Shown: positions 12,457-36,092 of the stretch, one piece after another | Numbering within the stretch: the first letter of the stretch is position 1 | Layout of the letters: every line of letters begins with the position of its first letter | DNA from: Anaerolineales bacterium | GTDB lineage: Bacteria > Chloroflexota > Anaerolineae > Anaerolineales > UBA6663 | DNA: 39,898 nt | Direction of reading: 5' to 3' | Assembly (NCBI GenBank): GCA_025057205.1 | Contig: JANWXR010000002.1 | Location: 1-39,898, forward strand | Position numbers and translations under genes: made by a program | Notes under the pieces: generated by a model | Seen by the model: the letters and a program-made list of their open reading frames with translations, nothing else | Told to the model about the DNA's origin: nothing | The model's database searches: none

Positions 12457-13230
12457 ATGCGCAGCGCGCCGTCCCTCGGCTCCATCCTCGCACAGGCCCT
12501 GCGCCAGTTTGCGTTAGTGGTGATGGCCGGCATGGCCCTCGCTACGGTGTTCATCCTCTGGACGCCCGGCAGCTTTTCGGTGACGGCGCTGGCTGGCCAG
12601 CTCGCCGACGCGCTCAGCCCGCGGAACGCCGGCCTGCCCAATCCAGTTACACCGCTGCCGCCCACACCCACACCGCTCCTCAGCGCGCCGCGTATCGGCC
12701 TCGTCTCCGGCCACCGAGGCAACGACTCCGGCGCAGTCTGCCCGGACGGCCTGACTGAGGCCGACTTAAATTACGACATCGCCCTGCGCGTCAAGGCCGG
12801 GCTGGAGGCCGCCGGATTTCAGGTGGATATCCTGGACGAGTTCGATAACCGGCTGACCGGCTATCGCGCACTGGCGCTCGTCTCCATCCATAACGACTCT
12901 TGCCAGTACATCAACGAGCTGGCGACCGGCTTCAAGGTGGCGCGCGCGCTCTACAGCCAGACGCCCGAGCGCTCCGACCAGCTGGTGGCTTGCCTGATTG
13001 ACCGATATCACAAAGCCACCGGCCTGGGCTTCCATGCCAACTCCATCACGCCGGACATGACCCAGTATCACGGCTTCGATGAGATCCACGCGACGACGCC
13101 GGCGGCCATCATCGAAACCGGCTTCATGTATCTGGATCGGCGCATCCTGACCGAGGAACCGTACCGCGTGGCGCAGGGCGTCATTGACGGCATCATTTGC
13201 TTTGTGCGCGGTGAACCGGTCGGCCAGTAA
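12457..13230 (+). CDS. N-acetylmuramoyl-L-alanine amidase (Amidase_3 type) with an N-terminal membrane anchor
   Basis: The ATG at 12457 gives MRSAPSLGSILAQALRQFALVVMAGMALATVFILW (anchor). The catalytic part reads IGLVSGHRGNDSGAVCPDGLTEADLNYDIALRV...ALVSIHNDSC...AAIIETGFM. Confidence 0.8.
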   Translation: MRSAPSLGSILAQALRQFALVVMAGMALATVFILWTPGSFSVTALAGQLADALSPRNAGLPNPVTPLPPTPTPLLSAPRIGLVSGHRGNDSGAVCPDGLTEADLNYDIALRVKAGLEAAGFQVDILDEFDNRLTGYRALALVSIHNDSCQYINELATGFKVARALYSQTPERSDQLVACLIDRYHKATGLGFHANSITPDMTQYHGFDEIHATTPAAIIETGFMYLDRRILTEEPYRVAQGVIDGIICFVRGEPVGQ

Positions 13231-13243
13231 ACTTGTCTCCAGC

Positions 13244-15961
13244 ATGGACGTTCTTGCACCTGCCGCCCCTTCAGCGCCCGCCGAAGTCGTCTACCGCGAG
13301 ATCCTGGAGCGGAGCGGGAGCGGCGTGTTCCAGAGCACGGCGGAGGGGCGCTTCATCTTCGTCAATGCCGCGCTGGCACGGATTTGCGGTTACGCCTCAC
13401 CCGAAGAGATGAAGGCCGCCGTCACCGACATCCGCAACCAGCTCTACGTCCTGCCCCAGCAATACGACGATTACCTCCGTGAGATGGAAGCCAGCGATGA
13501 AGCTCCCGGCCAGGAGGTGCAAATTTACCGCAAGGATGGCACGCGCCTGTGGGCCCAAATCCGGGCGCGCGCCGTGCGCGGCGAGGACGGTCGGACGCTA
13601 TATTACGAGGGCACACTCGAAGACGTCACCGCCCGCCGCCAGACCCAGGCACGACTGGAACGGAGCGCGCGCCAGCTCACCGCGCTCAGCCAGATGGGCC
13701 TGGCGGTGACCTCCAGCCTGGATCAGACCATCGTCCTCAACCGCGTTCTGGACGAAATTCTCAACTTGCTGAACGTGGACAGCGTGGCCGTGCTGCTGTT
13801 GGAGGGCGAACAGCTGGTGATGGCCGCCGTCGGCGGCTCGGGCACCGTTAGCCTCATCGGGCGGCGGATGCCGGTCGGCGCGGGGGTGGCCGGCGAAGTC
13901 GTCCGCACCGGTCGTTCGGTGCTGATTCAGGATGAGGCCGGCCAGGCGCGGCTCTATCGTCCGCTGGAGCAGTTCACCGTGTACGAGGCGCAATCGCTGC
14001 TAGCGGCCCCCCTCAAGTTACAGGGCGAAGTCATCGGCGTGATCGAGGTGGTGCACGAAGCGCCGGCATCTTTTTTGCAGGACGATGTGCAAATGCTCGA
14101 GGCCGCTGCCAGCTGGGCCGCGCTCGCCATCGGCAACGCCCGCCAGCACGCGCGTTTGGAGCGCCGCCTCCAGGAAAGCGAAGCGCTGAGCGTCATCAGC
14201 CAGGCGCTCAACGAGACGCATGACCTCGACGCCATCCTCAAGATGATTGTAGACGCAGCCCGGCAAATCATTCCGAAAGTTGAGCGCGCCGTCATCCACC
14301 TGCTGGATGAGGACGCGCAGACGCTGCGCTCCGCGGCCTATTCTAGCGACGAGCCGCTGAGCCGCTCCGAGCTGGCGATGCGCCCCGGGGAGGGCGTGGC
14401 CGGACGCGTGCTGGCCGAGGGCATCCCCATCAACGTCGGCGATATCCGCACCGACCCGCGCTATCTGCCCAGCGGCTCGCACCACAACATGCACTCACTG
14501 CTGGTCGCGCCGGTGCAAAGCGGTGAGCGGCGGCTGGGCACCATCAGCGTACAGAGCGCCGAACCGCATGCCTTCTCCTCCGACGATCAACAATTGCTGC
14601 GGACGCTGGGTTTGCAGGCCGCGTTGGCCATCGAGAACGCACGTCTGCTGGCCGCCGAGAGCCGCGCCCGCCACGACGCCGAAGTGCTGGGCGAGATTAG
14701 CACCATCCTCAGCTCGACGCTCGACTACGAGCGTGTGCTCGACCAGTTGCTGGAACAGGTGAACCGTCTCGTCCCCTCCGACATGGCCGAACTGATGTTG
14801 GTGGAAGGCAACCTGTACGCGCGCACGGTGCGCCAGCGCGGCTACGAGAAGTTCGGTGAGGAGGTGGTGCGCGCTGTGGGCGCCATGGCGCTCGACATCA
14901 CGGCCACGCCGCGTCTGCGGCATATGACCGAGACCGGCCAGCCGCTGGTCATCCCCGATGTACGCGCCGATCCTGGCTGGCTGCCGCGCGCTGCGATGAT
15001 CCACATCGGCTCTTGGGTAGGCGCGCCGATTGTGGTGCAGAACCAAGGCGTCATCGCCTTCTTTTCCCTGGAGAAGCTGGAGTCGGGCTATTACACCGCT
15101 GAGCATGGACACCGGCTGGCGGCTTTCGCTGGGCAAGCTTCGCTCGCGATTCAGAATGCGCGCCTGTATGCCAACCTAGAACGTGCGCTGCGCCACGAAA
15201 AATCCATGCGCGCCCAGCTGGTGCAATCGGAAAAGCTGGCCGCGATGGGCCGGCTGGTGGCCTCAGTGGCGCATGAGTTGAATAACCCGCTGCAGGCGAT
15301 TCAGAACTCCCTCTATCTCGTCAGCCAGGAGAACGAGCTTACCCCGCAGGCGCGCGAGGACTTGCAGGTGGCGCTAACGGAGGCCGACCGCATGGCCGCG
15401 CTCATCAGCCGGTTGCGCGAGACGTACCGCCCGGCCACCGCCGAGCAGTTCCGCTACGAATCACTCAACTCGATTATCGAAGAGGTACAGAAGCTCATCT
15501 CTACGCACCTGCGTCACAACAACGTGCACTTCAGCTTTGAGCCTGACCCTCGCCTGCCCAAAGTGCCCGGTCTGCGCGACCAGCTGAAACAAGTGATCCT
15601 GAACCTGTGCCTGAATGCGGTGGAAGCCATGCCGCGCGGCGGCGAGCTGCGTTTGCGCACTGAACATCTCCCCAAGCAGGGCGAGGTGCTGGTGACCATC
15701 TCCGATACCGGCGAGGGTATTGACCCAGTAGACCTGCGCAACATCTTCGAACCGTTCTTCACCACCAAGGAGGGCGGCACAGGCCTCGGCCTGTTCATCA
15801 CGCACGAGATTATCCAGCGCCATCAAGGCCGCGTCGAAGTGGAAAGCCAAGTTGGACACGGAGCGACGTTCCGAGTCTGGCTGCCGGTGACGCGCACCGA
15901 AATGTCCCACACCGACCCGGGCGCGCAGTTTGACGCGAAAAGTATAAACCAATGGTGCTAG
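13244..15961 (+). CDS. Sensor histidine kinase: PAS, three or four GAF domains, HisKA, HATPase_c
   Basis: PAS reads FQSTAEGRFIFVNAALARICGYASPEEM. GAF blocks end in ...AIGNARQHARLE, ...AIENARLLAAE and ...AIQNARLYANLE. The H-box is VASVAHELNNPLQAI. N/G boxes are LNLCLNAVEAM, DTGEGI and GGTGLGLF. I chose the ATG at 13244, 14 nt after the amidase stop. Confidence 0.9.
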   Translation: MDVLAPAAPSAPAEVVYREILERSGSGVFQSTAEGRFIFVNAALARICGYASPEEMKAAVTDIRNQLYVLPQQYDDYLREMEASDEAPGQEVQIYRKDGTRLWAQIRARAVRGEDGRTLYYEGTLEDVTARRQTQARLERSARQLTALSQMGLAVTSSLDQTIVLNRVLDEILNLLNVDSVAVLLLEGEQLVMAAVGGSGTVSLIGRRMPVGAGVAGEVVRTGRSVLIQDEAGQARLYRPLEQFTVYEAQSLLAAPLKLQGEVIGVIEVVHEAPASFLQDDVQMLEAAASWAALAIGNARQHARLERRLQESEALSVISQALNETHDLDAILKMIVDAARQIIPKVERAVIHLLDEDAQTLRSAAYSSDEPLSRSELAMRPGEGVAGRVLAEGIPINVGDIRTDPRYLPSGSHHNMHSLLVAPVQSGERRLGTISVQSAEPHAFSSDDQQLLRTLGLQAALAIENARLLAAESRARHDAEVLGEISTILSSTLDYERVLDQLLEQVNRLVPSDMAELMLVEGNLYARTVRQRGYEKFGEEVVRAVGAMALDITATPRLRHMTETGQPLVIPDVRADPGWLPRAAMIHIGSWVGAPIVVQNQGVIAFFSLEKLESGYYTAEHGHRLAAFAGQASLAIQNARLYANLERALRHEKSMRAQLVQSEKLAAMGRLVASVAHELNNPLQAIQNSLYLVSQENELTPQAREDLQVALTEADRMAALISRLRETYRPATAEQFRYESLNSIIEEVQKLISTHLRHNNVHFSFEPDPRLPKVPGLRDQLKQVILNLCLNAVEAMPRGGELRLRTEHLPKQGEVLVTISDTGEGIDPVDLRNIFEPFFTTKEGGTGLGLFITHEIIQRHQGRVEVESQVGHGATFRVWLPVTRTEMSHTDPGAQFDAKSINQWC

Positions 15962-16026
15962 TTCGATAGGAGTTACACAGTTGCGCCCGCGCTTCCGTAT
16001 ATGTGGCGGTCATATCCGCCGGAAGT

Positions 16027-16070
16027 CCGCCAGATATGGCGGCAACTCCCGCCAACTGCGTAAGTCCTAA
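16027..16070 (-). repeat. Short scar resembling the IS terminus and family-B hairpin arm
   Basis: GCCAGATATGGCGGC (16029-16043) equals the family-B hairpin arm. AACTGCGTAAG-TCCTAA (16054-16070) resembles AACTGCGTAAGGTGAG-TTCCTAA at 1436-1458. Confidence 0.35.
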
Positions 16071-16205
16071 CATTCAATTTCGTTTGGCCTTCATCTCGGC
16101 GATGTTCAATGTGCTCCTGGATTTATTTCACTCTCTCCACCCAGACGCCATGCCTCACCCGATGTCCATCGCCGAGTTCGCTCTCTAAAAACTAGCACCA
16201 AAGGT

Positions 16206-16211
16206 TATAAT
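16206..16211 (+). promoter_or_regulatory. Candidate -10 box (perfect TATAAT) upstream of the response-regulator gene
   Basis: A TATAAT hexamer lies 18 nt upstream of the ATG at 16230 in otherwise GC-rich DNA. No convincing -35 was found. Confidence 0.25.
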
Positions 16212-16229
16212 CCTGGTGGGAAAGTCGCC

Positions 16230-17024
16230 ATGAAACTCTCCGGACGCATCCTCATCATTGAGGACGAAGCCAGTCTGCGCCAGACCATGACGCGCATCAT
16301 ACGCCAGACCGGCTGCGAGGTGACCGCCGCCGCCAACGGCGTCGAAGCGCTGCAGCGCCTGGCCACCGCCACTTACGACCTGGCCTACCTGGACATCCAC
16401 CTGCCGGAGATGGACGGCATGCAGGTGCTCCGCGAGATTCATCGTCTGTATCCGCAGATGCCGGTCGTGCTGTTCACGGCATACGCTTCGCTGGATACCG
16501 CCATCGAAGCCATGCGACTGGGCGCGACCGATTACCTGCTCAAGCCGCTCAACCCGGAGCTGCTCATCTCGCGCACCGAGTCCATCCTAAAAAAGCAAGC
16601 AGTGGAGCAGCGCCGGCGCGAATTGCAAGCGCAAATCGTCAACCTCCAGGAAGAGCTGCGCCGGCTGGAAGAAAGCCTAGCCCCGCAGCCCTCGGCCAAT
16701 CTGCCGCAAAGCAGCCGCTTCTTGAAGCTGGGCCAGCTCAGCCTCGACCTGCAGGCGCGCCGCGCCATCTTCGCAGAGCGCGAATTGCAGCTGCCGCCCT
16801 CAGCCTTCGACTACCTGACGGTGCTCATGCGCCACGCCCCGGATGTGGTGGACTATCAGACGCTGGTCAACGAAGCGCAGGGCTACCAGGCCGACCGACG
16901 CGAAGCGCAGGAATTGGCGAAGTGGCACATTCACGAACTGCGCGACTCCCTCGAGCCGGACCCCGGAAATCCGCGCCATATCCTCAATGTTCGCGGCGTA
17001 GGTTATCGTTTGGTTATAGACTGA
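16230..17024 (+). CDS. Response regulator: receiver, coiled-coil linker, OmpR/PhoB-type winged-helix DNA-binding domain
   Basis: REC reads ILIIEDEASL...LAYLDIHLPEMDGMQV...LLKP. The C-terminus reads LSLDLQARRAIFAERELQLPPSAFDYLTVLMRH...VRGVGYRLV. Confidence 0.9.
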   Translation: MKLSGRILIIEDEASLRQTMTRIIRQTGCEVTAAANGVEALQRLATATYDLAYLDIHLPEMDGMQVLREIHRLYPQMPVVLFTAYASLDTAIEAMRLGATDYLLKPLNPELLISRTESILKKQAVEQRRRELQAQIVNLQEELRRLEESLAPQPSANLPQSSRFLKLGQLSLDLQARRAIFAERELQLPPSAFDYLTVLMRHAPDVVDYQTLVNEAQGYQADRREAQELAKWHIHELRDSLEPDPGNPRHILNVRGVGYRLVID

Positions 17025-17049
17025 GGCCACAGGGCCGACGAACTTCGTA

Positions 17050-17150
17050 ACTGGAGTCTGGCAAATTCCGGTTGGGGCACAAGATATGGCGGTTAGGTAA
17101 AGCAGCAGGCCGCCATATCTGGCGCCAAAAGTTCCATTTGCCGGACTCCG
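17050..17150. mobile_element. 101-bp palindromic MITE-like element (family B), copy 2, with a 7-bp direct duplication
   Basis: It is flanked by TTCGTAA at 17043-17049 and 17151-17157. The terminal inverted repeats are CTGGAGTCTGGCAAAT / ATTTGCCGGACTCCGG, with a central 11-bp perfect hairpin. It lies between the regulator and hybrid-kinase genes. Confidence 0.85.
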
Positions 17151-17262
17151 GTTCGTAAAAACCCCGCCCCTTTCCTTAATACAACCCCCTCACTGCGCCT
17201 GCCGCTTTCCCGGCGGCGACGCGACTTTCCCAACTTATGCCTCCAAAACCCAAACAGACCGG

Positions 17263-20199
17263 ATGCCGAAGCCCCGCGATAATAGCAGTATGTTGCCTAG
17301 CCCTCTTGTCTCATCACCCACCGTGCCTGCCCGAATTCTGATCGTTGACGATCACCCCAATACGGCTTCGATGCTGGCGCGCGCTCTCAAACAATTTGAC
17401 AAACCGGTCGAAGTGCTCACCGCCCGCAGTGGGCGCGAAGCGCTAGACATTATGCATCAGCAGCCAGTAGAAGTGCTGATTACCGATTTTATGATGCCGG
17501 GCATGAACGGCCTGGAACTGATCGAGCAAGCGCAGAAGAAGCAGGCGCCGTCGCAGATCATCCTGGTCACCGCGTATGACAGCCCCGGCCTGGCCGCTAC
17601 CGCGCGCCGGCTCAAAGTCAGCCACTATCTTATCAAACCCGTTCAGCCGGAGAAGCTGCGTGACCTGGTGGGACAGGCCATCGAGACGCTTTCCCGGCCT
17701 GCACCGTCAAAGCCGTCCGCCGAGATGCCTCCTGCCTCACAGTTCCGCATCCTCATCGCCGACGACCAATCCGACAACACGCAACTGCTGGCGACGCGCC
17801 TGTCGAGCGAAGGCTACACGTTCATCACTGCCAGTGATGGCCAGGAGACGCTGGACAAAGTTCGCGCCGAAAAGCCCGACCTGGTGCTGCTCGATGTGAA
17901 CATGCCGGGCAAGAGCGGCTTCGAAGTTCTCGCCGAAATCCGCGCCGACCCGGACATCGCCCACATCCCCGTCATCGTGTTGACCGCCGCGCGCACTTCG
18001 GTGCGCGACATCCGCGAAGGCCTCGGCCTGGGCGCGGACGATTACGTGACCAAGCCCTTCGATTGGCGTGAGCTGGCCGCCCGCGTCCGTTCCAAGCTGC
18101 GCGTCAAGTACGCCGAAGACAGACTGCGTCGCCGCAATCGTGAACTCAGCCTGCTGCCGGCCATCGGCCAGGATCTGAGCGCACGCACCGACGTGGACGA
18201 GCTGGGTCATGTGGTGCTGCGCCGCGCCGTGGAGGCCCTCGGTGCGGCCAGCGGCAACCTCGCCCTCATCGGATTGAACGATCAATGGCAGTACCAAAGC
18301 TACATAGCACGCGAAATCAGCGGCTGGGACTGGGAACGGGCGCAGGCCTGGCTAACGGCACGCAGCCTGATTGCCCAAGTGATGAACTCCGGGCAAGGCA
18401 CCATCCTGACCGACACCGCCGGCAACGCCGACTGGCCCCGCTTCGATTCCGACGAAAGCCCGGTGCGCTCGGCGATCTGTGTGCCGCTCCTGGGTCGGCG
18501 CGGCCCCCTTGGCACGCTCACCCTGCTGCACGAAACACCCGCGTACTTCGCCCAGGACCATATCGGGCTGCTGCAAGCCATCGCCAGCCAGGCCGCCATC
18601 GCCCTCGAAAATGCGCAGCTGTATGCCGCCGAGCGGCGGCGCGTGAACGAATTGGTGGCCCTGAATCAGCTCTCACAAGAGCTGGGCCGGATGATGCGCT
18701 CCGAAGAGCTGATTGACAGACTCCCACAGCTCGTCTGTAACGCGCTGGGATACCCCACCGTTACGCTGTGGTTGATGAACTCCGAATCCACCGGCCCGGA
18801 CGCCCTCAAGCTACGCAGCGTCGCCGGAATGGAAAACGCGCCACGCATGTCCCTACTGGCGCTGGCCCCGCAACAGGTAGCCGCAACCGGCCAGCCAGCC
18901 TGCCTCTCCGGTTCGGTGGAAGAGCGCACCGGCCATCGCGCCACGAAGTTGCCCACCAGCCAGCTGCCAACCCACTCGGCGGTGGCCGTGCCGTTGTGCG
19001 AAAAGTCCAGGGTTATTGGCGTAGTCGCCATTCACAGTCGCTTCCCCAACGCTTTCCAGGAAAGTGACCGCGTGCTGCTGGAAACCTTGGCCGCGCAGGT
19101 CATCTCCGCCCTGGAGCGCATCCGCTGGTTCGAGTCGGTGGAGCGTGAGCAGCAGCGATTGGCGGCGGTCCTCAACGCCACGCCCGAAGCCATCTTGGGC
19201 CTGGACGGCTTGGGCAACCTGCAATTCATCAACCCCGCCGGCTTCCGGCTGTGGGACGGCGTGAGCCTGCGCCTAGGCGAACCTTTGCCAAAAGGCACAC
19301 CCTACGATGAGTTGGTGCAGTTCCTCGACCAGGCGCGCGGCATGGCTCAGGCCGGGCTGCTGACGCGCCAGCTGCAATGGCCGGATCGGCGCGTCTTCAA
19401 CGTCTCGGTCACGCCGCTGGAGCCGGACGGGCAGGTCGTCATGCTGCACGATGTGACGCACTTCAAGGATATGGAGCGCGTCAAGAACGAATTCCTGGCC
19501 TCCGCCTCGCACGACCTGAAAAACCCGCTGACCGCCATCATCGGCTACGCCGACCTACTCCAGCGCGTGGATGATCCGACCGAGCGCCAGCTCCAGTTCA
19601 TTCAACGCATTCAAACCGCCTCGAGTCGCATGCTGGACCTGGTGAAAGACCTAATGGAGCTGGCACGCATTGATATGGGCCTAGAATTGCGTAAAGAACG
19701 CCTGGATTTGCACGACCTGCTCGCCGCTGAACTGGAAGACTTCCGTGACCAGGCCGCCGTCAAGCATCAGACTGTTCATTTGGAGCCGGCCACGGGGCCG
19801 GTCGTTGTCGAGGTAGATTTAGCCCGAATGCTGCAAGTGCTGCGTAACTTGGTGAGCAACGCCATTAAGTACACACCTGAGGGCGGGCAAATTACGCTGA
19901 GCGCCTCGGCTAGCGGGCAGGCCGGACAGTTTCAGGTGCGCGATACCGGGCTAGGCATCCCGGCGCCAGACCTGCCGCGCATCTTCGAGAAGTTTTACCG
20001 GGTACACACCACCGATCGCGAGGGCATCGAAGGCAGCGGCCTCGGCTTGGCGATCGTCAAAGCCATCGTTGAGCAGCATGGTGGTCAGGTTGCCGTGGAG
20101 AGCACACTCGGACGCGGCAGCTGCTTTACCGTGACGTTGCCTTTGGCCGAGATAGCCGAGACAACCCACAAACCGCTTCCCGTTCAAGCCGAATCTTAA
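17263..20199 (+). CDS. Hybrid sensor kinase: REC, REC, GAF, GAF, PAS, HisKA, HATPase_c
   Basis: There are two receivers (ILIVDDHPN...ITDFMMPGMNG and ILIADDQSDN...LLDVNMPGKSG). The H-box is FLASASHDLKNPLTAIIGY. ATPase boxes are LRNLVSNAIKYT, DTGLGI and GSGLGLAIVK. An alternative ATG lies nine codons downstream. Confidence 0.9.
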   Translation: MPKPRDNSSMLPSPLVSSPTVPARILIVDDHPNTASMLARALKQFDKPVEVLTARSGREALDIMHQQPVEVLITDFMMPGMNGLELIEQAQKKQAPSQIILVTAYDSPGLAATARRLKVSHYLIKPVQPEKLRDLVGQAIETLSRPAPSKPSAEMPPASQFRILIADDQSDNTQLLATRLSSEGYTFITASDGQETLDKVRAEKPDLVLLDVNMPGKSGFEVLAEIRADPDIAHIPVIVLTAARTSVRDIREGLGLGADDYVTKPFDWRELAARVRSKLRVKYAEDRLRRRNRELSLLPAIGQDLSARTDVDELGHVVLRRAVEALGAASGNLALIGLNDQWQYQSYIAREISGWDWERAQAWLTARSLIAQVMNSGQGTILTDTAGNADWPRFDSDESPVRSAICVPLLGRRGPLGTLTLLHETPAYFAQDHIGLLQAIASQAAIALENAQLYAAERRRVNELVALNQLSQELGRMMRSEELIDRLPQLVCNALGYPTVTLWLMNSESTGPDALKLRSVAGMENAPRMSLLALAPQQVAATGQPACLSGSVEERTGHRATKLPTSQLPTHSAVAVPLCEKSRVIGVVAIHSRFPNAFQESDRVLLETLAAQVISALERIRWFESVEREQQRLAAVLNATPEAILGLDGLGNLQFINPAGFRLWDGVSLRLGEPLPKGTPYDELVQFLDQARGMAQAGLLTRQLQWPDRRVFNVSVTPLEPDGQVVMLHDVTHFKDMERVKNEFLASASHDLKNPLTAIIGYADLLQRVDDPTERQLQFIQRIQTASSRMLDLVKDLMELARIDMGLELRKERLDLHDLLAAELEDFRDQAAVKHQTVHLEPATGPVVVEVDLARMLQVLRNLVSNAIKYTPEGGQITLSASASGQAGQFQVRDTGLGIPAPDLPRIFEKFYRVHTTDREGIEGSGLGLAIVKAIVEQHGGQVAVESTLGRGSCFTVTLPLAEIAETTHKPLPVQAES

Positions 20200-20322: not shown

Positions 20323-22818
20323 GTGCATCTGATGTCATCTCCCTCCCCACAGAACACATCGGCAACGCCAGCGCCCGCTATGCCAACTTCGGCGGAAGCA
20401 AAAAACGCGCAGCGCGCCGCCCTGATTACGCTCATCGTCACCGCCGGGTTGACGGTGTATTTTGGGTTTCTGGCTTACCGGCAGCTCGATACCAACTCGA
20501 TCTGGGCTACGCTGAATACGCTCGGCATGACGCTGGCCAACCTGGCCGGCTTCTGGTTCAGCCGACGGGGTCGCCATGTGCTCGGAACATGGCTGGTTCT
20601 GGGCGGCTTGATGGTCGGCGTAGTGACATCACCGGCCATACGAGCCGGTCTGGGCCTGGCCCTCTTTATTAGCGCACCCTTGTTTGTTGCCGTCGTTGCC
20701 GGTCAGACCCTGCCGCCACGACAGGTTCCCTGGGCCGTCGGCCTGGGGGTCGGGGCAGGCATCATCGCCGGGCTGGGAGACTACTTCTGGCCGTGGCCCC
20801 GCCCCCTCTCGCCGGTCTATCAAACCCTGCCCATCATCGCCACCGGCGTGGTGCTGATACTGGGCTGGGGGATCGTGCGCCGCTTCCCGCACTACAGCCT
20901 GCGTACCAAGCTGTTGATAAGCTCCGTCACCGTGGTGGCGCTAACGGTCGGCGCACAATCCATCATTTTCAGCCAAATCGCCACCTCCGAAATTCGTGCC
21001 CAGGTGGGCAACAGTCTGGTCGCTCTGGCTGAGGACCGGGCAACGACCATCGGCAGCCGGATCGGCCTGCAGGCGGACGTGCTGCGCGCGCTGGCGCTCA
21101 ACAAGTTCCTGCAGGACGGGCTGGAAGAGGCCAGTCGCACCAACACGCAGAGCGCCGAGGCCCTGCGCGCCGCCGATGAGCGCTGGCGCCGGGCCGTGGA
21201 GGCAGGCCGGCCGGACGACCCGCTTATCCTTCAGGTGCTCAACCATCCACTGGCCGGCGAACTCAATGAACTCCGCGAGCGTTTCTCGCAATCCGAGCTG
21301 TTCCTGACCACCGACCAACACGGCGCTACGGTCGCATCCACCCAGGTCGTAGAACGTTACTATCACGGCGACGAGGCCTGGTGGCAAACGGCCTCTTCAC
21401 GCGGCATCTTCATCGGCCTGATTGAGCAGGGTTTCGGTGGTCCTCGACTCGGCATTGCCGTTGCCGTGCCCGCTCACGAGCGTGAGCAGATCGTCGGCGT
21501 GGCGCTGACCTTGCTCCACCTCGACCAATTTGCGGATGACCTGGCAAGCGCACGCCGCGGCAAGACAGGCCGCACCGAGATTTACTTCGAAGGTGGGGGT
21601 GGGCTGAAGTTACACGAAGCTGCCGACGGCAGCCTCAAACTCGAACTAGAGAGAGAGGCGAGGTTAGATTTGCAGCGGTTGATTGCGTCATCGGAGCCAT
21701 TCCTTGAGATCGAACACGATGGAAAGGTGGCGTTATCCAGCTCTGCGCGCGTCCGTTCCAATCTCAAGGCAGACCCTATCGGCGACGAGAGGGGCTCCAT
21801 TACTGGCCTGGGCTGGTACGTCGTTGTCTCTCAAGAAAAGAACGAGGCTCTGGAGCCGGTGGCTGTGATCATGCGCGCCAACTTTCTCATCACAGTCGTC
21901 GCCCTGCTGATTGCCGGCCTGGCAGCGGTGGTGGTGGCCCAATTGCTGACGCGCCCCCTCACCCGTCTGACCGCCGTGGCCGCCCGCGTCTCCGCCGGCG
22001 ACCTGAAGGTGCAGGCACCGGTGGAAAGCGGCGACGAGATCGGCGCGCTGGCGACGACCTTCAACGTAATGACCACACAGCTGCGTGAAACGCTCGAGGG
22101 CTTGGAACAGCGCGTGGCCGACCGCACGCGCGCCCTGGCCACCAGCGCTGAAGTCAGCCGACGGCTCTCCACCCTCCTTGACCCTACTGAGCTGGTGAAG
22201 CAGGTCGTTGAGCGAGTACAGCGCGCGTTCGGCTATTACCATGTACACATCTATCTGTTCGATGAGTCGCGTGAAAATCTGGTGATGAGGGGCGGCACGG
22301 GCGAGGCCGGCGCATTGATGCTGACACGCGGCCACAAGCTGCCGCGCGGCAAAGGCTTAGTCGGCCGCGCCGCCGAGACCAACCAGATCGTGCTTGTGCC
22401 CGAAACCGCGCGCGACCCCGGCTGGCTGCCCAACCCGCTGCTGCCGGAAACGAAGGCTGAGGTCGCCGTGCCTATTGCCATCGGTGAAGAAGTGCTGGGT
22501 GTGATCGATGTCCAGCACAACGTGGTCGGTGGGCTGACGCAAGACGACGCCGACCTGCTCCAGGCGATTGCGAACCAGATGGCCATCGCGCTCCAGAACG
22601 CCCGCATCTACCGGCAGGCGCAACGCCGGGCCGAGGTGGAAGCGCTGGTGAACTCCATTAGCCAGAGGCTTCAATCCACCACAACGGTAGATGAGGCGCT
22701 TCAAGTAACGGCGCGCGAAGTGGGCCGCGCCCTGGGCGGCGTGCGCGTACAGGTGCGTCTGGCCCCAACAAACGGACACACAGCGCCGCCGACCGGCGTT
22801 GCGGAATCGCAGAACTAG
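20323..22818 (+). CDS. Membrane sensor with no recognisable output: multi-TM N-terminus, Cache-like periplasmic domain, HAMP, GAF, conserved C-terminal tail
   Basis: The N-terminus has about six hydrophobic helices. A Cache-like segment reads ...[19 protein letters not shown].... HAMP reads [44 protein letters not shown] reads [13 protein letters not shown]...[30 protein letters not shown]. The protein ends 65 aa after the GAF domain with no kinase, cyclase, GGDEF or HTH. The track start at 20323 is GTG. An ATG alternative is at 20332. Confidence 0.85.
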
Positions 22819-22828
22819 GGAACCCGCT

Positions 22829-25552
22829 ATGCCACCAAACACTTCTGCGCCTTACCTCTCTCACGGCCACGACCCGTGGCTGGTCATGTTGTCCGTCGCG
22901 ATGGCGGTGCTGACGGCATACGCCGCGCTCGAACTGGCGTGGCGCATAGTTGGGGCGCGCGGCCGGGAGCGCTATCTGTGGCTGGCCAGCAGCGCAGTCG
23001 CTCTCGGCGCCGGCGCCTGGTCCGCGCATTTTATTGGGATGTCGGCCCTTCAGCTGCCTGTGCCGGTGCGGTATGACGTGCTCACCGCGCTGGCGGCGCT
23101 GCTGCCGGTGGTGGCCGGCGCAGCGCTGGCATTCTGGCTCAGCGGCAGAGCCAGAGCCGAAGTACGCCCGTGGCAGATCGGCCTGGCTGGCTCGGTCCTG
23201 GGCGGGGCCATTGCCGGTATGTACTTCATCGGCATGGCTGCCCTGCGCCTCCGAGCGACGTTCAGCTACGACCCGGCCTGGTTGGCGTTTGCGTTCGTCG
23301 TCGCCACAGTCACTTCGAGCTTTGCGCTTTGGCTGCACGTAGGCCTCCGTGCCGCCGCTACGTCTGCTAGGCAGCTGGGCAAAATCGCCGGCGCCCTGGC
23401 GCTGGGCGGCGCGATTGCCGGCCTGCACTACGCCGGGATGCGCGCGGCTAAGTTCCTGCCGACGACCGACTACTTGCCTAATCCCATCGGCCTGGTTGAC
23501 ATTGACGTACTCGGCTCCGCAGCCATCATCGTTGGCGTTCTAACCGTAATCACCACCGGCCTGACGGTCTTGGTGTTCAACCAACAATTGCTGAGTCAAC
23601 TCAGCTTTACACGCAAATTCCTGCTCGTCAGCGCGCTCTTCATCACGCCGCTTCTTGTCGTCATCGGCGTGTTCTCCTTCGAGCTGTACGATCGTATTGA
23701 TAAATACGGCTACCGCGAACTGTACGGCGTTCGCTATGTGACGCCGCTGCAAAGCCTGCTCGTTAACTTGCAATTGCATCAGGAAGCGCTGGCCGAATAC
23801 GCCGCCGGCCGACTGACCGAACAGCAGTTGCTCGACGTTCGGAGCGCCGTTGATGCCGACTTAGCCACCCTTGCCGAACTAGACCGCCGGTATGGCACGA
23901 TATTGCAAACTAACACATGGCTATCCAGTCTGAGGTATAAGTGGTCTGGCCTGCAAAGCCAGACACTCCGGTTCTCGCCACAGGCCGCCCGGTTGCGTCA
24001 TATCGAATCGGCAACGAACGTACGTGAGTTGATCGCCTACATCGGCGACAGCTCTTTCCTAAGCCTTGACCCCGACCTGGATAGCCACAACTTAATGAGG
24101 GCAACACTAATCCACCTGCCGGATAATCAAATGTTGCTCAACCGGTCGGCGCAGATGTTCCTGGCAACACTACACGGAGAACTGGTAACGCCGGAAGAAA
24201 GAGCACAGCTCTCAGCAGCGCTCACATTATTGCGTGCTAATCTCGATGCGTTGGAGGCTGAGCTTGAGGTAGCTTATCGCAACCACCCAGACGGCTTCAT
24301 TGAGCCGAACCTTGCACCGGAGTTTGCCGCCTATCGCCAGGTCCTGACAGAATATTTGGACTTCCTGAAATTTCAGCTGAACCTGACGAAACCGACGGTC
24401 TCCCTCTCGGATGCCCGGCGCCTCATCGGCGAAGCGCGCGCCGCAAATCAGCGGTTTTACGCTGTGGTCAGTGAAAATTTGGCCGCCAGCATCCAGGGCC
24501 GGATTGACCGCTTGACTTTTCGCCTGGCCAGTTTGGTTGGGTTCAGCCTATTCACCGGCGCCTTGGCGCTGGCCTTCGGCCAGGCGGTGTTCCGCGTCAT
24601 CCTTCGGCCGCTGCGCGCCCTGACTGACGCCACACAGGCTCTAGCAGGCGGCGATTTGAGCGTGCGCGTCAACGTGGTCGGCTCTGATGAGATAAGCACG
24701 CTGGCGCTGGCCTTCAACGACATGGCCCGCCGCCTGCAGCTGAGCCAGACCGAATTGGCTGAGCGCAACCGCGCTTTGGCCACTTCGGCAGAGGTCAGCC
24801 GCCGCCTCTCGACGCTGCTGGATGAAAAGCAGCTGGTGCGGGAGGTCGTCGAGCAGTTGCAACTGGCCTTCGGCTATTACCATGTCCACATCTACCTTTT
24901 CGACGAGCAGCGCGAAAATCTGATAATGGCCGGCGGCACCGGCCCGGTGGGCGCGGCGCTGCTAGAGCGCGGCCACAAGCTACCACGTGGCAAGGGCCTG
25001 GTCGGCCGCGCCGCCGAGACCAACGCACCCGTCATCGTGCCGAACACCACGCTCGACCCAGGCTGGCTGCCCAACCCGCTACTGCCGGACACCAAAGCCG
25101 AAGTCGCCGTCCCCATCGCTCTGGGCAACGAAGTGCTCGGTGTGCTGGACGTGCAGCAGAACATGGTCAACGGCCTCTCGGCTGCCGACGCTGAGATGCT
25201 TCAGGCCATCGCCAACCAGGTCGCGCTGGCGCTGCGCAACGCGCGCTCCTATGCCCGCGCGCAACGCACCGCCGAGCGCGAGGCTTTGGTCAACAGCATC
25301 AATCGCAAGATCCAATCTGCCGCTAGCCTGGAATCCGTGCTAGACATTGCCGCGCGCGAACTAGGCCTGGCGCTGAGAGCGCGCACCGCCGTTGCAGAAC
25401 TCAACCTGCGCCCCGCAATGGAACGCTCAACCACTATTGCGACGGCTGACGAACGAAGGCCGAGCGCTCGCGCCAAACTTGAAATAAGCAGAGCGAACCC
25501 GGTCAGCACCGGCTTCATTGACGCAGAAACCAACGGCCGCAGTCACAGTTAA
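22829..25552 (+). CDS. Membrane sensor with no recognisable output: MHYT domain, helical periplasmic/linker domain, HAMP, GAF, conserved C-terminal tail
   Basis: Three MHYT-type motifs are present ([29 protein letters not shown]) in six TM helices. HAMP reads [41 protein letters not shown]. The GAF domain is about 75% identical to that of the preceding gene. I chose the ATG at 22829 because the track start at 22799 is TTG and overlaps the previous gene. Confidence 0.85.
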
Positions 25553-25561
25553 AGTCGCGCT

Positions 25562-28500
25562 ATGAACGCACCTGAACTATCTCCCCACAAGAAAGCCGTA
25601 CCCGGCCTGAACACATTGCAGCGCATCTGGCAATCGCTGGTGCAGCCATCGGCGCTTATCACCGAAATCGGCGAACGCCGCCAGGCCGAGCTGCTGGCCT
25701 CCCTGACGCTGATCTTCATTTCTCTCTCGAGTGCAGGCGCGTTTGCCAACCTGGTGACCGTGCCAGGCCGCGGGTTCAATGCCGCCTCATGGGCGCTGTT
25801 GGCGACGACGCTCGTGACGCTGGTCGCATATCTTCTTAGTCGCAGCCGCTATTTTCGTCTGGGCGTGTGGCTCCTCATCATCATCCTTGTTGCAGGTGGC
25901 TTCTCTTTGGCTCAAAGTGACCCGAGCCGCGCCAGCTTTGCACTCTTCAGGTTTGTGCCACTTGCATTTGTCGTCACCAACATCTTTTTGAACTTTACCG
26001 GCGCCGCCATTGTGATGGCACTAACCGTTGCTGCCTTGCTGATGCTGCCTCTCTGGCTCGACGTGACGCCGCGCGAGGCCACTTCGCTGGCCGGTGCCCT
26101 TGGCGCGTTTGGCACGTTGCTGCTCATTGCCGCCGGCTTCCGCAACAAACTGGAACGCGACCGCCTGGCCGAGCTCTCGGCAGCCAATGAGAAACTGCGA
26201 ACCCTCGGTGCACTGCTGGAACAACGCGTCGCCGAACGTACCCGCGACATTATCCTGGCCGCCGACGTGGGCCGGTCATTAGCCAAAGCTCGCGACCTTG
26301 ACACACTCCTGGCCGACGCTGTAGAGCTGATTCGCGAACGCTTCGACCTGTATCACGTTCAAATCTACGTGACGGACTCCGCCGGGCACAAATTGCTGCT
26401 CCGCGCCAGTAGCGGCGAGGTGGGCGCAGAGCTGCTGCGCCGTCGACACTACCTGCCTGTCAGCCTCGGCTCGCTCAACGGCCAGGCAGCACTGGAACGC
26501 CGCCCAGTGCTCGTCACCAACACACTGTCCGACCCCAACTTCAAGCCCAATCCTCTCTTGCCGGAGACCCGCTCCGAGGCCGCCATCCCGCTTATCGCCG
26601 AAGGCCGTGTGCTGGGCGTGCTCGATCTGCAAAGCAATCAACCGGGTGCGTTCACGGCAGAGAGCCTGCCCGTCTTCGAGACACTGGCCGGCCAGCTCAC
26701 GATCGGCATCGAAAACGCGCTCCTGCTGCGGGAGGCCGAAGCCGCTCGCAACGAGCTGGCCGAGCAAACGCGCCGCCTCAGCCGCAGCGGCTGGCAGGCT
26801 TTCCTCGATGCCATTCACCGGGCTGAACATGTGGAACGCCGCTATGTGAGCGAGGCAGCAGAAGCCACAGAGCTCGCAGCAGCGGACGAAGAACGCTCCG
26901 TTTTGACCGTGCCCATGACCATCGCCGGCGAAGCCATTGGCGCACTGCGGGTGGAGGCCGGCGAACAACGTAGCTGGTCGGCAGATGAAGTCGAATTGGT
27001 AGAGGTGGTTGCTCGGCAGGTAGCCGCGCATCTGGATGACCTGCGCCTCATCGCTCAGGCCGAGCAATACCGCGCCGAGGCCGAGGACGCTATGCGTCGC
27101 CTGACGCGAGAGAGCTGGCAGATGTACCTGGTCGAAGCCGAGAAACCGCCCGCCTACGTGTACGACGGCGAGCAAGTTCAGACCGTGTCCGATGAAACCG
27201 CTTCGGTTGAACCCAGGCACATCTGGCCGCTGACCTTGCACGGCGAACGACTGGGCGAAATTGCCATCGAGGCCGAGACCGTCGGGCCGGAGGCCGAGCA
27301 CATCCTCGCTGCCGTCGCCGAGCGCCTCAGTGTGCATCTGGAGAACCTGCGCCTCTCCGCCCAGACCGAGCAGGCGCTCACCGAGAATCAAAAACGCGCC
27401 GACCAGCTAGCCCGACTCTCCGAGATAGAACAGGCGCTCTCATTGGCAAAGACCGAAGAGGAAATCATCGAAGCTATACAGCCCGCCTTCGACGCAAAGA
27501 ACCTGACGGCCATCACCCTTACCTACATCACCGGCGACGAACGCGGTCGGGCGATGACGCTCGATGGCGCGGCAGTCTGGGCTGACGGACGGTTCTGCCA
27601 CGACCGGTTGCCTGCTCTACAAAACCTGAGCCTTGAGAAGCACCCCCTCACACCGCTCTGGATGACGCGTGCCGCCGAACCGACCTTTGTCGGCGATGTG
27701 CTGACCGACCCGCGCGTCGGTGAAGCGGTACGGGCGTTGGCCCGTGAAGAGGGTTGGCGTTCACTGCTGTTGCTACCGCTCCGCAGCGGTGGCCGGTGGC
27801 AGGGGCTGCTCACCGTGAGCTGGGCAGAGCCGCGCACGCTTAGCGCCGATGAGGCCTTCTTCGCCGAGCGGTTGCTGGAGTCGGTGGCCGGCGTTACCGC
27901 CACCCGTTGTGCTTCCCTGGCGCAACAACGAGCTCTGGCAGAAAACCTGCGCCGCAACGAGGAACTGACCGCCCTCAATCGGCTTGTCATTAGCGCCGCT
28001 TCCGCGCGCGACGTGACGGAGCTGCTGCAATCCGCCGCCCGCGAAGTGGTGCAGCTGCTGCACGCCCGCAGCGCCGCCTTCGCCCTGCTGGAGCCGGACG
28101 GCCAGCATCTGCGATTGATCGCCGACTACACTACCACCAGCGACGAGCCGAGCGCCGTCGGCATGCTCATCCCCCTGGCGGGTAACCTCTCGACTCAATG
28201 GGTGTTCGAGCACCGGCGCGCGCTGGTGGTGAATGACGCCCAGAGCAATCCGCTGACGACGCCGATCCACGAGCTGATGCCCACGCGCCGGACGCAGGCG
28301 TTGCTCATCGCGCCATTGACAGTCCGCGGCGAGGTCATCGGCACGCTGGGCGTAGACCTGGAAGAAGTGGGCCGCACCTTCACCCCAAACGAAGTCTCGT
28401 TCGTCGAAACGCTGGCCGGCCAGCTGGCCGGTGTGCTGGAGAACCTGCGCCTCTACGCCGAAGCGCAACGCCGCGCCGAGCGCGAGTACCTCATCAACAC

Positions 28501-28633
28501 CATCACGCAGAAGATCCAGAGCACGACCACCGTGACCGGCGCACTGCAAACAGCCGTGCAGGAGCTGGGGCTGGCACTCAAAGCCAAACGTACACATGTA
28601 GAGCTAAGCCCGGCGCCGATCAACGGCCACTGA
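25562..28633 (+). CDS. Membrane-anchored multi-GAF protein (1023 aa) with no recognisable output and the same conserved C-terminal tail
   Basis: It has about five N-terminal TM helices, then a coiled coil, then repeated GAF and half-GAF-like modules ([30 protein letters not shown]; ...[16 protein letters not shown]...). It ends [50 protein letters not shown]. Confidence 0.85.
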   Translation: [1023 protein letters not shown]

Positions 28634-29400
28634 AGAAGTTATGGCCATGCCCTATGTGATTGCACTTTGGCATCAGAAAGGTGGAGTCTCCAAGACCACC
28701 ACGGCCTTAGCGTTGGCCGCCTGCCTAGTGGAGAAAGCTCACCCAACCCTGTTGCTGGACCTGGATCCACAGGGCAACCTGACCACCGGCCTAGGTCTCA
28801 ACCCGGCAGAAGCGCGTCACTCCCCCGCCGACTTGCTGCTTGGCAATGACACCGTCTCCCGCGTCGTTTGTGCAACTCCCTGGCCTGGCCTGGACATTAT
28901 CCCCTCCAACCCGGACATGGTGACGGTGAGCCGGTGGCTGCATGTGCGCGAGGGCTACGAGCCGGTGCTGCGCCATGCGCTGAGCCGGCCGGACGTTGCC
29001 GGTTACGACTTCGTCTTCCTCGATTGCCCGCCGATGCTCGGCCCCATCACCATCGCCGCGCTCACCGCCGCCCAGCTGGTCATCGTGCCCACGCAGTGCG
29101 AATACTTCTCGGTGCAAACGCTGGGCAGCAGCCTCAAGCTGGTACAGCTGGTGCGCGGGCGCACCAACCCGGGCTTGGCCTACCGCGTGCTCGTCACCCT
29201 CTTCGACCTGCGCGGCGCGCTGCACAGCCGCGTCCTCGCCCAATTGCAGCAACACTTCGCACCGGCCATGTTCCAAACCATCATCGGTGTGGACTCCAAG
29301 CTGCGCGAAAGCCAGCTCGTCGGAACGCCTATCACCTTGCATGCCCCTCATAGCCGAGGCACCCAGCAATATCGTCAACTGGCCGAGGAACTTTGCGCCT

Positions 29401-33975
<4,575 letters not shown>

Positions 33976-34033: not shown

Positions 34034-35710
34034 ATGGCACGACCTTCCTATCTTGAGTGCGTTCACTGCGGCGATCGGCAGCCGTACGTTCCGTTCATAC
34101 CGCCGGTGTGTGCACGCTGCGGCTCAGAGTGGCTAGAGCCGTGGTACGACTACGCCGCCTTTAAGCGCGAGCTGCTGCGCGGGTTGCCAGGCCGCCCGGC
34201 CAATTTGTGGCGCTACCACGACGTCCTCCCGGTGGACGACCCGTTGCGCTTCGACCTGAACAGCGCCGGCGGTACGCCCATGTTGCACTCGCGCCGCTAC
34301 GCCGACCGCCTGCGCCACGCACAGCTCTACATCAAGGATGAACGCCATGGCCCGACCAGCTCGTTCAAGGACCGGCAGGCCGCGGTGGCCGTCGCCGCCA
34401 TGCTGGAAGCCGGCGTCCGTGAGTGCGTCATCGCCTCCACCGGCAACGCTGCCGTTGCCTACGCCTCCGCTTGCGCGCGTGCCGGCATCAAGCTGTGGGT
34501 GTTCATGACCAGCCTGGTGCCCAACGAGAAGCTGCGCGAAGCGGCGCTCTTCGGCGCAGAGGTCATCAAAGTCAGCGGCAACTACGACCAAACCAAGCAA
34601 ATCGCCGCTGACTTCGCCAAACGCCGTGGCCTGCTGCTGGACCGCGGTGCGCGCAGCATCCCGGCGCGTGAGTCCATGAAGACCATCGCCTATGAGATCG
34701 TCGAGCAGCTGGGCTGGCGCGCGCCGGACTGGTACATCCAATCGGTCAGCGGCGGGCTGGGGCCGCTCGGCGTCTATCACGGCTTCAGCGAGCTGCAACA
34801 CATGGGCCTGATTGACAAAATCCCCAAGCTGGGCATCATTCAGGCCGAAGGTTGTGCGCCGATGGTGCGCGCCTTCAAGGCAGGGCGGGACACCGCTGAG
34901 CCGGTGACGCCCGAGACGCGCATCGCCGTGCTTTCCACCGGCGACCCGGGCCGCACCTACACCTATCTCTGGCAGCTGGTGCAGAAGCATGGCGGCGCCA
35001 TGGAGAGCGTCTCCGACCATGCGGCCTGGGACTCGATGCTGACGCTGGCCAAGGCCGAAGGCATGGCCGTCGAGCCGGCTGCTGCCGTCGCCTTTGCCGG
35101 CTTCGAAAAGCTGCTAGCTCAGGGCCATATCCATTCGGAGGAGCTGGTCGTGATCAACGGCACCGGCCACACCTTCCCTGTGGAAAAGCACGTGCTCGGC
35201 GAGCAGTGGCACGTGGACGTGCACTTGAGCGACGACATGCGGCCGGCCCCGCGCGAGGGCCTGCTCGCCGCGCTCAACCAGCTCGATGAGAAGGTGACCA
35301 GCGTGCTGCTGGTGGACGACAATCCCGACGACGCGCTGCTCATCCGGCGGTTGCTGGAGAACCGCAAGTCGTACCGCGTCTTCACCGCCAGCAACGGCGT
35401 GGATGGACTGCGGCAAGCTCGCGAGCGCCTGCCTGACTTGATCATCACCGACCTAACCATGCCGGAAATGGATGGCTTCACTTTGCTGGAAGAATTGCGT
35501 CATGACGCGCGCACCCGCAACATTCCGGTAATTGTGGTCAGTGCACGCGACATCACCGCCGACGAGCGTGCCCGCCTGAACGAGGCAGCGATCGAGGCTC
35601 TTTACGAGAAAGGCTCACTCTCACCACGTGCGTTCGTGGAACAGGTCGTACAGGTGATCGGCGACAAGACGTCGCCGGGTGGAAAGACATCGCCGAACGG
35701 AGGTCATTGA
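34034..35710 (+). CDS. Threonine-synthase-like fold-type-II PLP enzyme with an N-terminal zinc ribbon, fused to a C-terminal receiver (REC) domain
   Basis: A CxxC...CxxC ribbon is present (CVHCGD...CARCGS). The PLP-lysine motif is PTSSFKDRQAAV, and STGNAA and GGLGPLG motifs follow. The C-terminal REC reads VLLVDDNPDDALLIRRLL...LIITDLTMPEMDGFTLL...VVSA. Confidence 0.8.
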   Translation: MARPSYLECVHCGDRQPYVPFIPPVCARCGSEWLEPWYDYAAFKRELLRGLPGRPANLWRYHDVLPVDDPLRFDLNSAGGTPMLHSRRYADRLRHAQLYIKDERHGPTSSFKDRQAAVAVAAMLEAGVRECVIASTGNAAVAYASACARAGIKLWVFMTSLVPNEKLREAALFGAEVIKVSGNYDQTKQIAADFAKRRGLLLDRGARSIPARESMKTIAYEIVEQLGWRAPDWYIQSVSGGLGPLGVYHGFSELQHMGLIDKIPKLGIIQAEGCAPMVRAFKAGRDTAEPVTPETRIAVLSTGDPGRTYTYLWQLVQKHGGAMESVSDHAAWDSMLTLAKAEGMAVEPAAAVAFAGFEKLLAQGHIHSEELVVINGTGHTFPVEKHVLGEQWHVDVHLSDDMRPAPREGLLAALNQLDEKVTSVLLVDDNPDDALLIRRLLENRKSYRVFTASNGVDGLRQARERLPDLIITDLTMPEMDGFTLLEELRHDARTRNIPVIVVSARDITADERARLNEAAIEALYEKGSLSPRAFVEQVVQVIGDKTSPGGKTSPNGGH

Positions 35711-35711
35711 G

Positions 35712-36092
35712 ATGGCTCCAACGATTCTCTACATCGAAGACAACCCGGACAACATGCTGCTGGTGCAGCGGGCGCTGGAGGCACGCGGTTACAACTTTCT
35801 CTGGGCGGCCAACGGCTTGAGCGGTTTGGCGGAGGCTGAGGCCAAACGCCCCGACCTGATCCTGCTCGACATCAACCTGCCCGATATTGACGGTTACGAA
35901 GTGGCGCGCCGCATCCGCGCCCACGCCGAGCTGCGCACGCTGCCCGTCATCGCCATCACCGCCAACGCCCTGCGCGGCGACGCCGAGAAAGCGCTTAACG
36001 CCGGCTGTGATGTGTACATGTCCAAACCCATCAACATCCGTGAACTGTGGGCTAAGATTAATTCCTTCTTGCCGAACGGAGCAGGCTTCTGA
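35712..36092 (+). CDS. Single-domain response regulator (CheY-like receiver)
   Basis: ILYIEDNPDNMLLVQRAL...LILLDINLPDIDGYEV...ITANALRGD...YMSKP. A GGAGG sequence lies 8 nt upstream of the ATG. The start is 1 nt after the stop of the preceding gene. Confidence 0.9.
   Translation: MAPTILYIEDNPDNMLLVQRALEARGYNFLWAANGLSGLAEAEAKRPDLILLDINLPDIDGYEVARRIRAHAELRTLPVIAITANALRGDAEKALNAGCDVYMSKPINIRELWAKINSFLPNGAGF

Follow-up and report, generated by a model that had tools for sequence, protein, structure and literature searches.

Three consecutive sensor genes (A, B and C) of an Anaerolineales bacterium (Chloroflexota; Anaerolineae; UBA6663) encode proteins that end in related segments of about 48-50 residues, hereafter the tail, which is a genuine, strongly conserved C-terminal module of a large, undescribed sensor family. 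The tail is homologous to the helix-helix-strand start (α1-α2-β1) of a GAF domain, i.e. to its first third. The genes lie on contig JANWXR010000002.1 (assembly GCA_025057205.1), of which positions 1 to 39,898, the whole stretch of 39,898 nucleotides analysed here, are referred to as the window; features are on its forward strand unless stated otherwise. We put at roughly 45% the probability that the tail is the output of these sensors and docks onto a histidine kinase encoded in the same gene cluster, either by fold complementation or by binding an R-x3-L-F motif of the kinase; the contact, its partner and the direction of signalling are what we infer.

Gene A (20323..22818; 831 residues) encodes a transmembrane region, a dCache-like domain, HAMP, GAF and the tail, with Pfam matches to HAMP (residues 538-589), GAF (620-758) and, weakly, dCache_1. 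Gene B (22799..25552; 917 residues) combines three MHYT domains with HAMP, GAF and the tail. Gene C (25562..28633; 1023 residues), whose product is identical to MCS6909008.1 from an Anaerolineales bacterium metagenome-assembled genome, runs from a transmembrane region through GAF, two short GAF-related modules (mini-GAF) and more GAF, including a terminal one, to the tail; four of its stretches are matched by GAF models. Pfam found no output domain in any of the three proteins, HisKA, HATPase, GGDEF, EAL and MCPsignal being absent from all of them. The tails occupy residues 766-813 of A (22618-22761), 821-870 of B (25259-25408) and 968-1015 of C (28463-28606), and the last Pfam GAF matches stop before them, at residues 758/759, 812/814 and 957/961, respectively.

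An earlier note on this stretch had reported related C-terminal segments in A, B and C, at which the proteins were said to stop. The tail sequences agree with those quoted in the note, and the relatedness is borne out: pairwise identity between the tails is 44-59%, 18 columns are invariant in all three, and a tail profile run against the six-frame translation of the window matched only these three open reading frame (ORF) ends (E = 2.6e-29, 3.8e-25 and 2e-24), with the next-ranked ORF at E = 0.22. This similarity is far beyond chance. The stopping point needs correction for A, which does not end at ...QVRL and continues through an 18-residue polar extension to 22815, and for C, which has eight further residues (SPAPINGH), whereas the low-complexity extension that the note gave for B is present (25409..25549) and, at 47 residues, is unusually long against a family median of 10. 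Both A and C end with NGH-containing sequences and B with NGR; as a family trait, the C-terminal 'NGH' motif was rejected, since no more than 36 of the 158 members have 'NG' behind the strand. The longest ORF of gene B begins with TTG and shares 20 nucleotides (22799-22818) with the end of gene A; the true start may be an ATG 30 nucleotides downstream (MPPNTS...).

Beyond the window, 1.84 billion cluster representatives (clusters at 50% identity) were searched exhaustively with the profile, which matched 3059 of them at E ≤ 1e-3 and, at the stricter E ≤ 1e-10, 1030; this search took the place of a word-indexed one with the tail alignment, which yielded just 10 short fragments. The position of the tail is uniform. 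In all 158 proteins inspected the last tail match lies close to the C-terminus (median 6 residues away, maximum 52), a stop codon follows within 43 residues at 200 of 200 genomic copies (median 8; 83 loci), and 120 of the 120 listed homologues of the GAF-plus-tail region of A end in the tail. No remainder of a GAF domain stands behind the C-terminal tail in any of these 158 proteins or 200 genomic copies; the segment after the strand is short, polar and rich in K, S, G, N, E and D (median 10, range 3-56 residues). Among 55 full-length members, all 55 contain GAF, 27 HAMP, 21 PAS and 16 dCache, and none contains HisKA, HATPase_c, GGDEF, EAL or MCPsignal. The tail is also better conserved than the domain before it: in a 143-sequence GAF-plus-tail alignment, conservation of at least 90% is reached by 14 of its 48 columns but by just 1 of the 116 columns of the GAF core. 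Many of the conserved positions are polar (N-x-I-x-Q-x-IQ ... E ... Q-x-A-x-RE-x-G-x-A-x-G), a sequence pattern that suggests a specific interaction surface rather than a hydrophobic core alone. Invariant residues include Q189, E204 and G206, as numbered in the segment of A from residue 596 to 831.

That homology covers only the first third of the domain would suit a view of the tails as functionless leftovers of a GAF domain cut by frameshift, assembly error or pseudogenisation, but the shared end point recurs across all of the proteins and genomic copies above, from independent assemblies, more than a thousand clusters match at the stricter threshold, and the tail outdoes the neighbouring GAF in conservation. 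In the window itself, ORFs A, B and C are intact and the next gene begins immediately behind each tail gene. We therefore regard a relic or artefact as effectively refuted, in agreement with the earlier note, which had argued against accidental truncation on the strength of the three paralogues, had proposed recording whether homologous tails are always C-terminal, and had named a complete GAF behind them as the sign of an assembly or annotation fault.

The identity of the tail rests on profile and structure comparisons. Its best match among solved structures was the cyanobacteriochrome GAF of 6oap (E = 1.2e-5), where tail positions 3-46 align with chain residues 138-181 (QRIERERVVSQITQKIHQTLDLEEILQTTVTEVRQFLQADRVFV), the helix-helix-strand start of that domain; 8w26 and 2lb5 were also matched, over residues 10-53, at GAF N-termini. 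Compared by hhalign with the GAF domains of the window, tail columns 8-52 fall on GAF columns 10-54 (E = 2.8e-4, probability 41%), and the tail profile weakly matches the start of the last GAF of C. Set beside GAF (PF01590/PF13185) of the phytochrome and cyanobacteriochrome type, such as 6OAP, the tail has the same start, with an I-x-QKI-x-QS...L...E....R-x-x-V pattern, but is without the ligand-binding half (β2-α3-β3-α4) and without β5-β6-α5. The tail is not a complete GAF domain: it has about 48 residues where GAF has about 150, its fold is incomplete, and it stays below the Pfam threshold; nor can it by itself be a ligand-binding domain. When the tails alone were compared with Pfam-A 2025, no model matched at E ≤ 10, GAF models included, and NCBIfam 20.0 gave chance-level matches only (E at least 0.087), which disposes of the possibility, raised in the earlier note, that the tail is a known small domain.

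An AlphaFold model of residues 596-831 of A (79-row alignment, mean predicted local distance difference test (pLDDT) score 89) shows a regular GAF whose α5 runs unbroken into the first tail helix (helix 145-189, segment numbering), followed by a turn at STTT and a second helix (194-208). Behind it, the model renders the conserved VRVQVRL as coil, its pLDDT dropping from about 68 to 54, and the strand of the C-terminal tail is thus predicted to be without a partner inside its own chain. Because the model gives a helix, a turn, a second helix and an unpaired strand, the tail is more than the coiled-coil continuation that the earlier note had named as a refutation of its reading.

Three of the 158 proteins, P0011 (residues 759-809), P0016 (480-529) and P0046 (714-762), each carry an extra, internal copy of the tail. 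In all three a short linker leads from the internal tail into the hairpin-plus-helix half of a mini-GAF module; in P0046 what follows is the whole module without only its N-terminal helix. The fused unit of P0011 was modelled from an alignment built block-diagonally (45 tails, 45 module halves, three fusions) and gave a compact GAF-like fold at pLDDT 91.5, in which the tail strand (53-58) is a β-strand beside the hairpin (73-80, 83-91). Foldseek returned only GAF domains for this unit, e.g. 6oap, PDE2A (TM-score 0.77), PDE5/6 and KdpD-GAF. Tail, hairpin and helix together are therefore predicted to have the GAF fold, with the tail as one half of a minimal GAF fold and the hairpin plus helix completing it. 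The earlier reading of the tail as the first third of a GAF domain gains from this unit, as it does from the 6oap match and the alignment with the window's GAFs. As minimal three-stranded GAF-like units, these proteins' internal tails with hairpin and helix may preserve an ancestral state from before the split, or may have arisen by secondary fusion; a search with the tail-plus-module segment of P0046 found no further ones.

The helix that runs unbroken from GAF α5 into the tail is open to another interpretation. Continuous helices are the geometry of dimeric signalling helices in HAMP and GAF proteins, and the tail could be a homodimer cap that only ends and stabilises a parallel coiled-coil spine, two tails packing together as four helices and a two-stranded sheet. 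No other protein would then be bound, and the sensors would signal otherwise, e.g. by GAF-GAF heterodimerisation or ligand buffering. Such tail-tail pairing is compatible with all the data. Against this, no other part of the protein is as conserved as the tail, which has many polar residues that are invariant (N, Q, Q, E, Q, R, E) and which sensors with unrelated input domains share unchanged; neither is what one would expect of a mere cap. A cap would also leave the whole family without any output and the strict adjacency to one kinase type unexplained. We consider the cap rather unlikely.

The adjacency in question emerged from genome context. A scan of GTDB species genomes found 190 relatives, and we examined the best 80 of these 190, which were chosen by likeness to one tail subtype (a 4-sequence alignment), such that context counts are biased towards one cluster type; these 80 loci, five metagenome loci and the window were annotated with local profiles. 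Nearly all of the best 80 carry names within Chloroflexota (Anaerolineae, Anaerolineales, Thermoflexales, Ca. Villigracilis), and two are without a taxon name. The gene order begins with a histidine kinase, an OmpR-type regulator and a REC-REC-GAF hybrid kinase, continues with two X-HAMP-GAF-tail sensors and one HAMP-GAF-mini-mini-(GAF)-tail sensor, and then passes to a kinase of the form mini-mini-mini-(GAF)-HisKA-HATPase, followed by PALP-REC, REC and PALP. Exactly three tail genes are present in 56 of 83 loci, and in 79 of the 83 the gene behind the last tail gene is of the kinase type made of mini-GAF modules, 74 of these 79 having the kinase core. This downstream mini-GAF kinase is soluble. 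The tail proteins therefore have the make-up of accessory sensors, with no transmitter domain in any of the 55 full-length homologues and a kinase adjoining them at nearly every locus.

The mini-GAF module, of about 105 residues, is recognised by its pattern W-x-x-YL ... YxYD ... PL..GE.IG ... ENLRL. By hhalign (probability 97%, E = 2.6e-11), its C-terminal half is homologous to the C-terminal third of GAF. Pfam recognises the module only weakly, as GAF, and no model was found that captures it as a unit. It occurs in tandem in gene C, where a local hidden Markov model (HMM) of the module places two complete copies at 26750-27073 and 27074-27376, and also in the window's kinase and in the downstream kinases of other loci. 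An apparent third mini module in gene C was rejected: the module HMM had cross-matched the last GAF there, in its C-terminal part. Tail and mini-GAF are both cut-down GAF derivatives, and the two are fused, internal tail to mini C-terminal half, in the three proteins described above; they differ in that the tail represents the opposite, N-terminal end of GAF and is terminal in nearly all proteins, whereas the modules are internal. No similarity was detectable between the tail and the mini-GAF's own N-terminal helix. In the kinases, the first mini-GAF starts at model position 24-26 in 67 of 77 cases, i.e. without the N-terminal helix, while 146 of 152 later modules begin at position 1-3. The helix-less first kinase module is arranged like the one that P0046 carries behind its internal tail.

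Kinase N-termini share a second feature. The motif R-x3-L-F, as in RIQSLFSDIEHLA, is found in its strict form in 62 of 79 kinases, its R, L and F are each at 98-100% among the aligned kinases, and the six unmatched kinases that were inspected carry a near-variant of it. It usually precedes a coiled coil and a low-complexity linker, and a motif of the type E-x-E-x-LRAR-x-x-ELE recurs in these N-termini. In the window, the position that in other genomes belongs to the mini-GAF kinase behind the tail genes is held by histidine kinase K (29401..33975), which has three PAS domains, GAF domains, one mini-GAF that is complete by the local module HMM (31837..32169), and HisKA-HATPase. At its N-terminus lies the motif MSKDLYSKRLEDLFSGS (29401..29451), a candidate docking peptide, with the coiled-coil segment AEVEALRARIAELEIELAAT... 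(29584..29670) behind it, and kinase K thus keeps both elements (MSKDLYSKRLEDLFSGS ... EVEALRARIAELE) despite its different architecture. Its start appears to overlap the end of the preceding ParA-like gene, as does that of the kinase in one metagenome locus, L083.

We propose that the tail may be the output, or partner-binding element, of accessory sensors whose inputs are dCache, MHYT, PAS, HAMP and GAF domains. As an incomplete GAF-like half-fold, presenting an unsatisfied β-strand and an exposed helical face, it would dock on the co-encoded kinase and complete a GAF-like unit in trans, the best supported of the mechanisms considered; alternatively, the socket could be the kinase's conserved N-terminal R-x3-L-F helix, which would bind the tail. 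Either way, several membrane sensors with different inputs would feed one kinase. In a more specific form of the proposal, a naturally split GAF-like domain would serve as plug and socket, the sensors carrying its N-terminal third and the kinase starting with a module from which that part is missing; complexes would form by fold completion in trans, and up to three membrane sensors would share, or compete for, one kinase dimer. The helix-less first module of most kinases and the three fused proteins are consistent with such a split, but the window's kinase is without a truncated module, and we offer the split domain tentatively, as a possibility about which we have real doubts.

Several observations weigh against docking onto the kinase. 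Kinase K has PAS domains at its N-terminus, its sole mini-GAF is complete, and the helix-less first module is missing here, so that only the R-x3-L-F motif and the coiled coil are common to it and the other kinases. Some loci have one tail gene yet three kinase modules, which excludes a simple 1:1 stoichiometry. Natural tail-plus-module fusions are rare (the three proteins among 158), the hhalign probability for the tail against GAF is no higher than the 41% given above, and the context counts carry the bias that comes with the choice of loci.

Instead of the kinase, the tail might recruit a different cluster product, namely a single-domain response regulator, the PALP-REC enzyme or a ParA-like ATPase. 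PALP-REC and a stand-alone REC stand behind the kinase in most loci, and in the window they are, respectively, a threonine-synthase-like pyridoxal phosphate enzyme fused to a C-terminal receiver (34034..35710) and a single-domain response regulator (35679..36092), both conserved downstream members. The ParA/MinD-like gene (28641..29432; Pfam AAA_31/CbiA) lies directly behind gene C, between the last tail gene and the kinase, and its counterpart lies behind the equivalent gene in L083 (15344-16159), an unrelated metagenome locus. Receiver domains, however, normally dock on the dimerisation and histidine phosphotransfer (DHp) helices of kinases, not on GAF fragments, and no structural complementarity was found for REC, PALP-REC or ParA, whereas the kinase has a matching truncation in most loci. 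ParA had been among the candidate partners named in the earlier note; since it is present at that position in only about 2 of 86 loci and absent there from the other loci examined, we rejected it as a general partner of the tail and regard it as an optional component of the cluster. Docking on any of these members strikes us as improbable. The window holds a variant of the cluster in which a ParA-like gene has been inserted and the kinase has gained three PAS domains.

The remaining members of the cluster in the window comprise, upstream of the tail genes, a histidine kinase with three GAF domains (13184-15961), an OmpR-type regulator (16230-17024) and the REC-REC-GAF hybrid kinase (17263-20199), and this trio (13184..20199) is also found upstream in L002, L011, L017 and L083. 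The whole signalling cluster (13184-36092 in the window; L001-L085) is conserved across Anaerolineae genomes. The presence of PALP-REC downstream of the kinase suggests a metabolic output of the pathway. The PALP-REC protein ends in ...SPNGGH, reminiscent of the NGH-type ends of A and C. Outside the cluster, the guanine-plus-cytosine content of positions 1-2000 is markedly lower (0.54 against about 0.63), and these first 2 kb contain a minus-strand ORF of 234 residues (714-1418) for which a mobile-element remnant is a guess.

Among systems known to us, the nearest in function is NreA/NreB of Staphylococcus carnosus, where a GAF accessory sensor, NreA, controls a kinase by direct contact. Like NreA, the tail sensors contain GAF, have no transmitter, are encoded beside a histidine kinase and presumably act by protein-protein contact. 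In contrast to NreA, a small, soluble and complete GAF protein, they are large, multi-domain and often membrane-bound; there are several paralogues to a single kinase, and what presumably makes the contact is part of a domain only. In structure, the nearest concept is the completion of a fold in trans, as in the donor-strand complementation of chaperone-usher pili or in engineered split phytochrome reporters; as there, an incomplete fold with an unsatisfied strand or groove would here be completed by a segment of another polypeptide. To our knowledge, there is no natural split GAF domain that couples a sensor to a kinase.

Domain databases have no model for the tail. Its proteins go under the name 'GAF domain-containing protein' or are misleadingly called nitrate/nitrite sensor kinases. 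Many HAMP-GAF-tail fragments are labelled by JGI as 'nitrate/nitrite-specific signal transduction histidine kinase' or 'methionine-R-sulfoxide reductase with GAF domain'; the fragments so labelled contain neither a kinase nor a reductase domain. In the literature, we found no description of the tail, of the mini-GAF modules or of the operon. What is new here is a GAF-derived terminal module that defines an undescribed sensor family and operon. Thousands of bacterial sensors lack any output domain that can be recognised; for the present family, the tail is a concrete, testable candidate for that output. Were it to dock on the kinase, this would be a new way to wire several inputs into one two-component kinase, and engineering would gain a compact natural heterodimerisation pair. 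A split GAF plug and socket, if true, would give two-component systems a coupling principle that has not been described for them.

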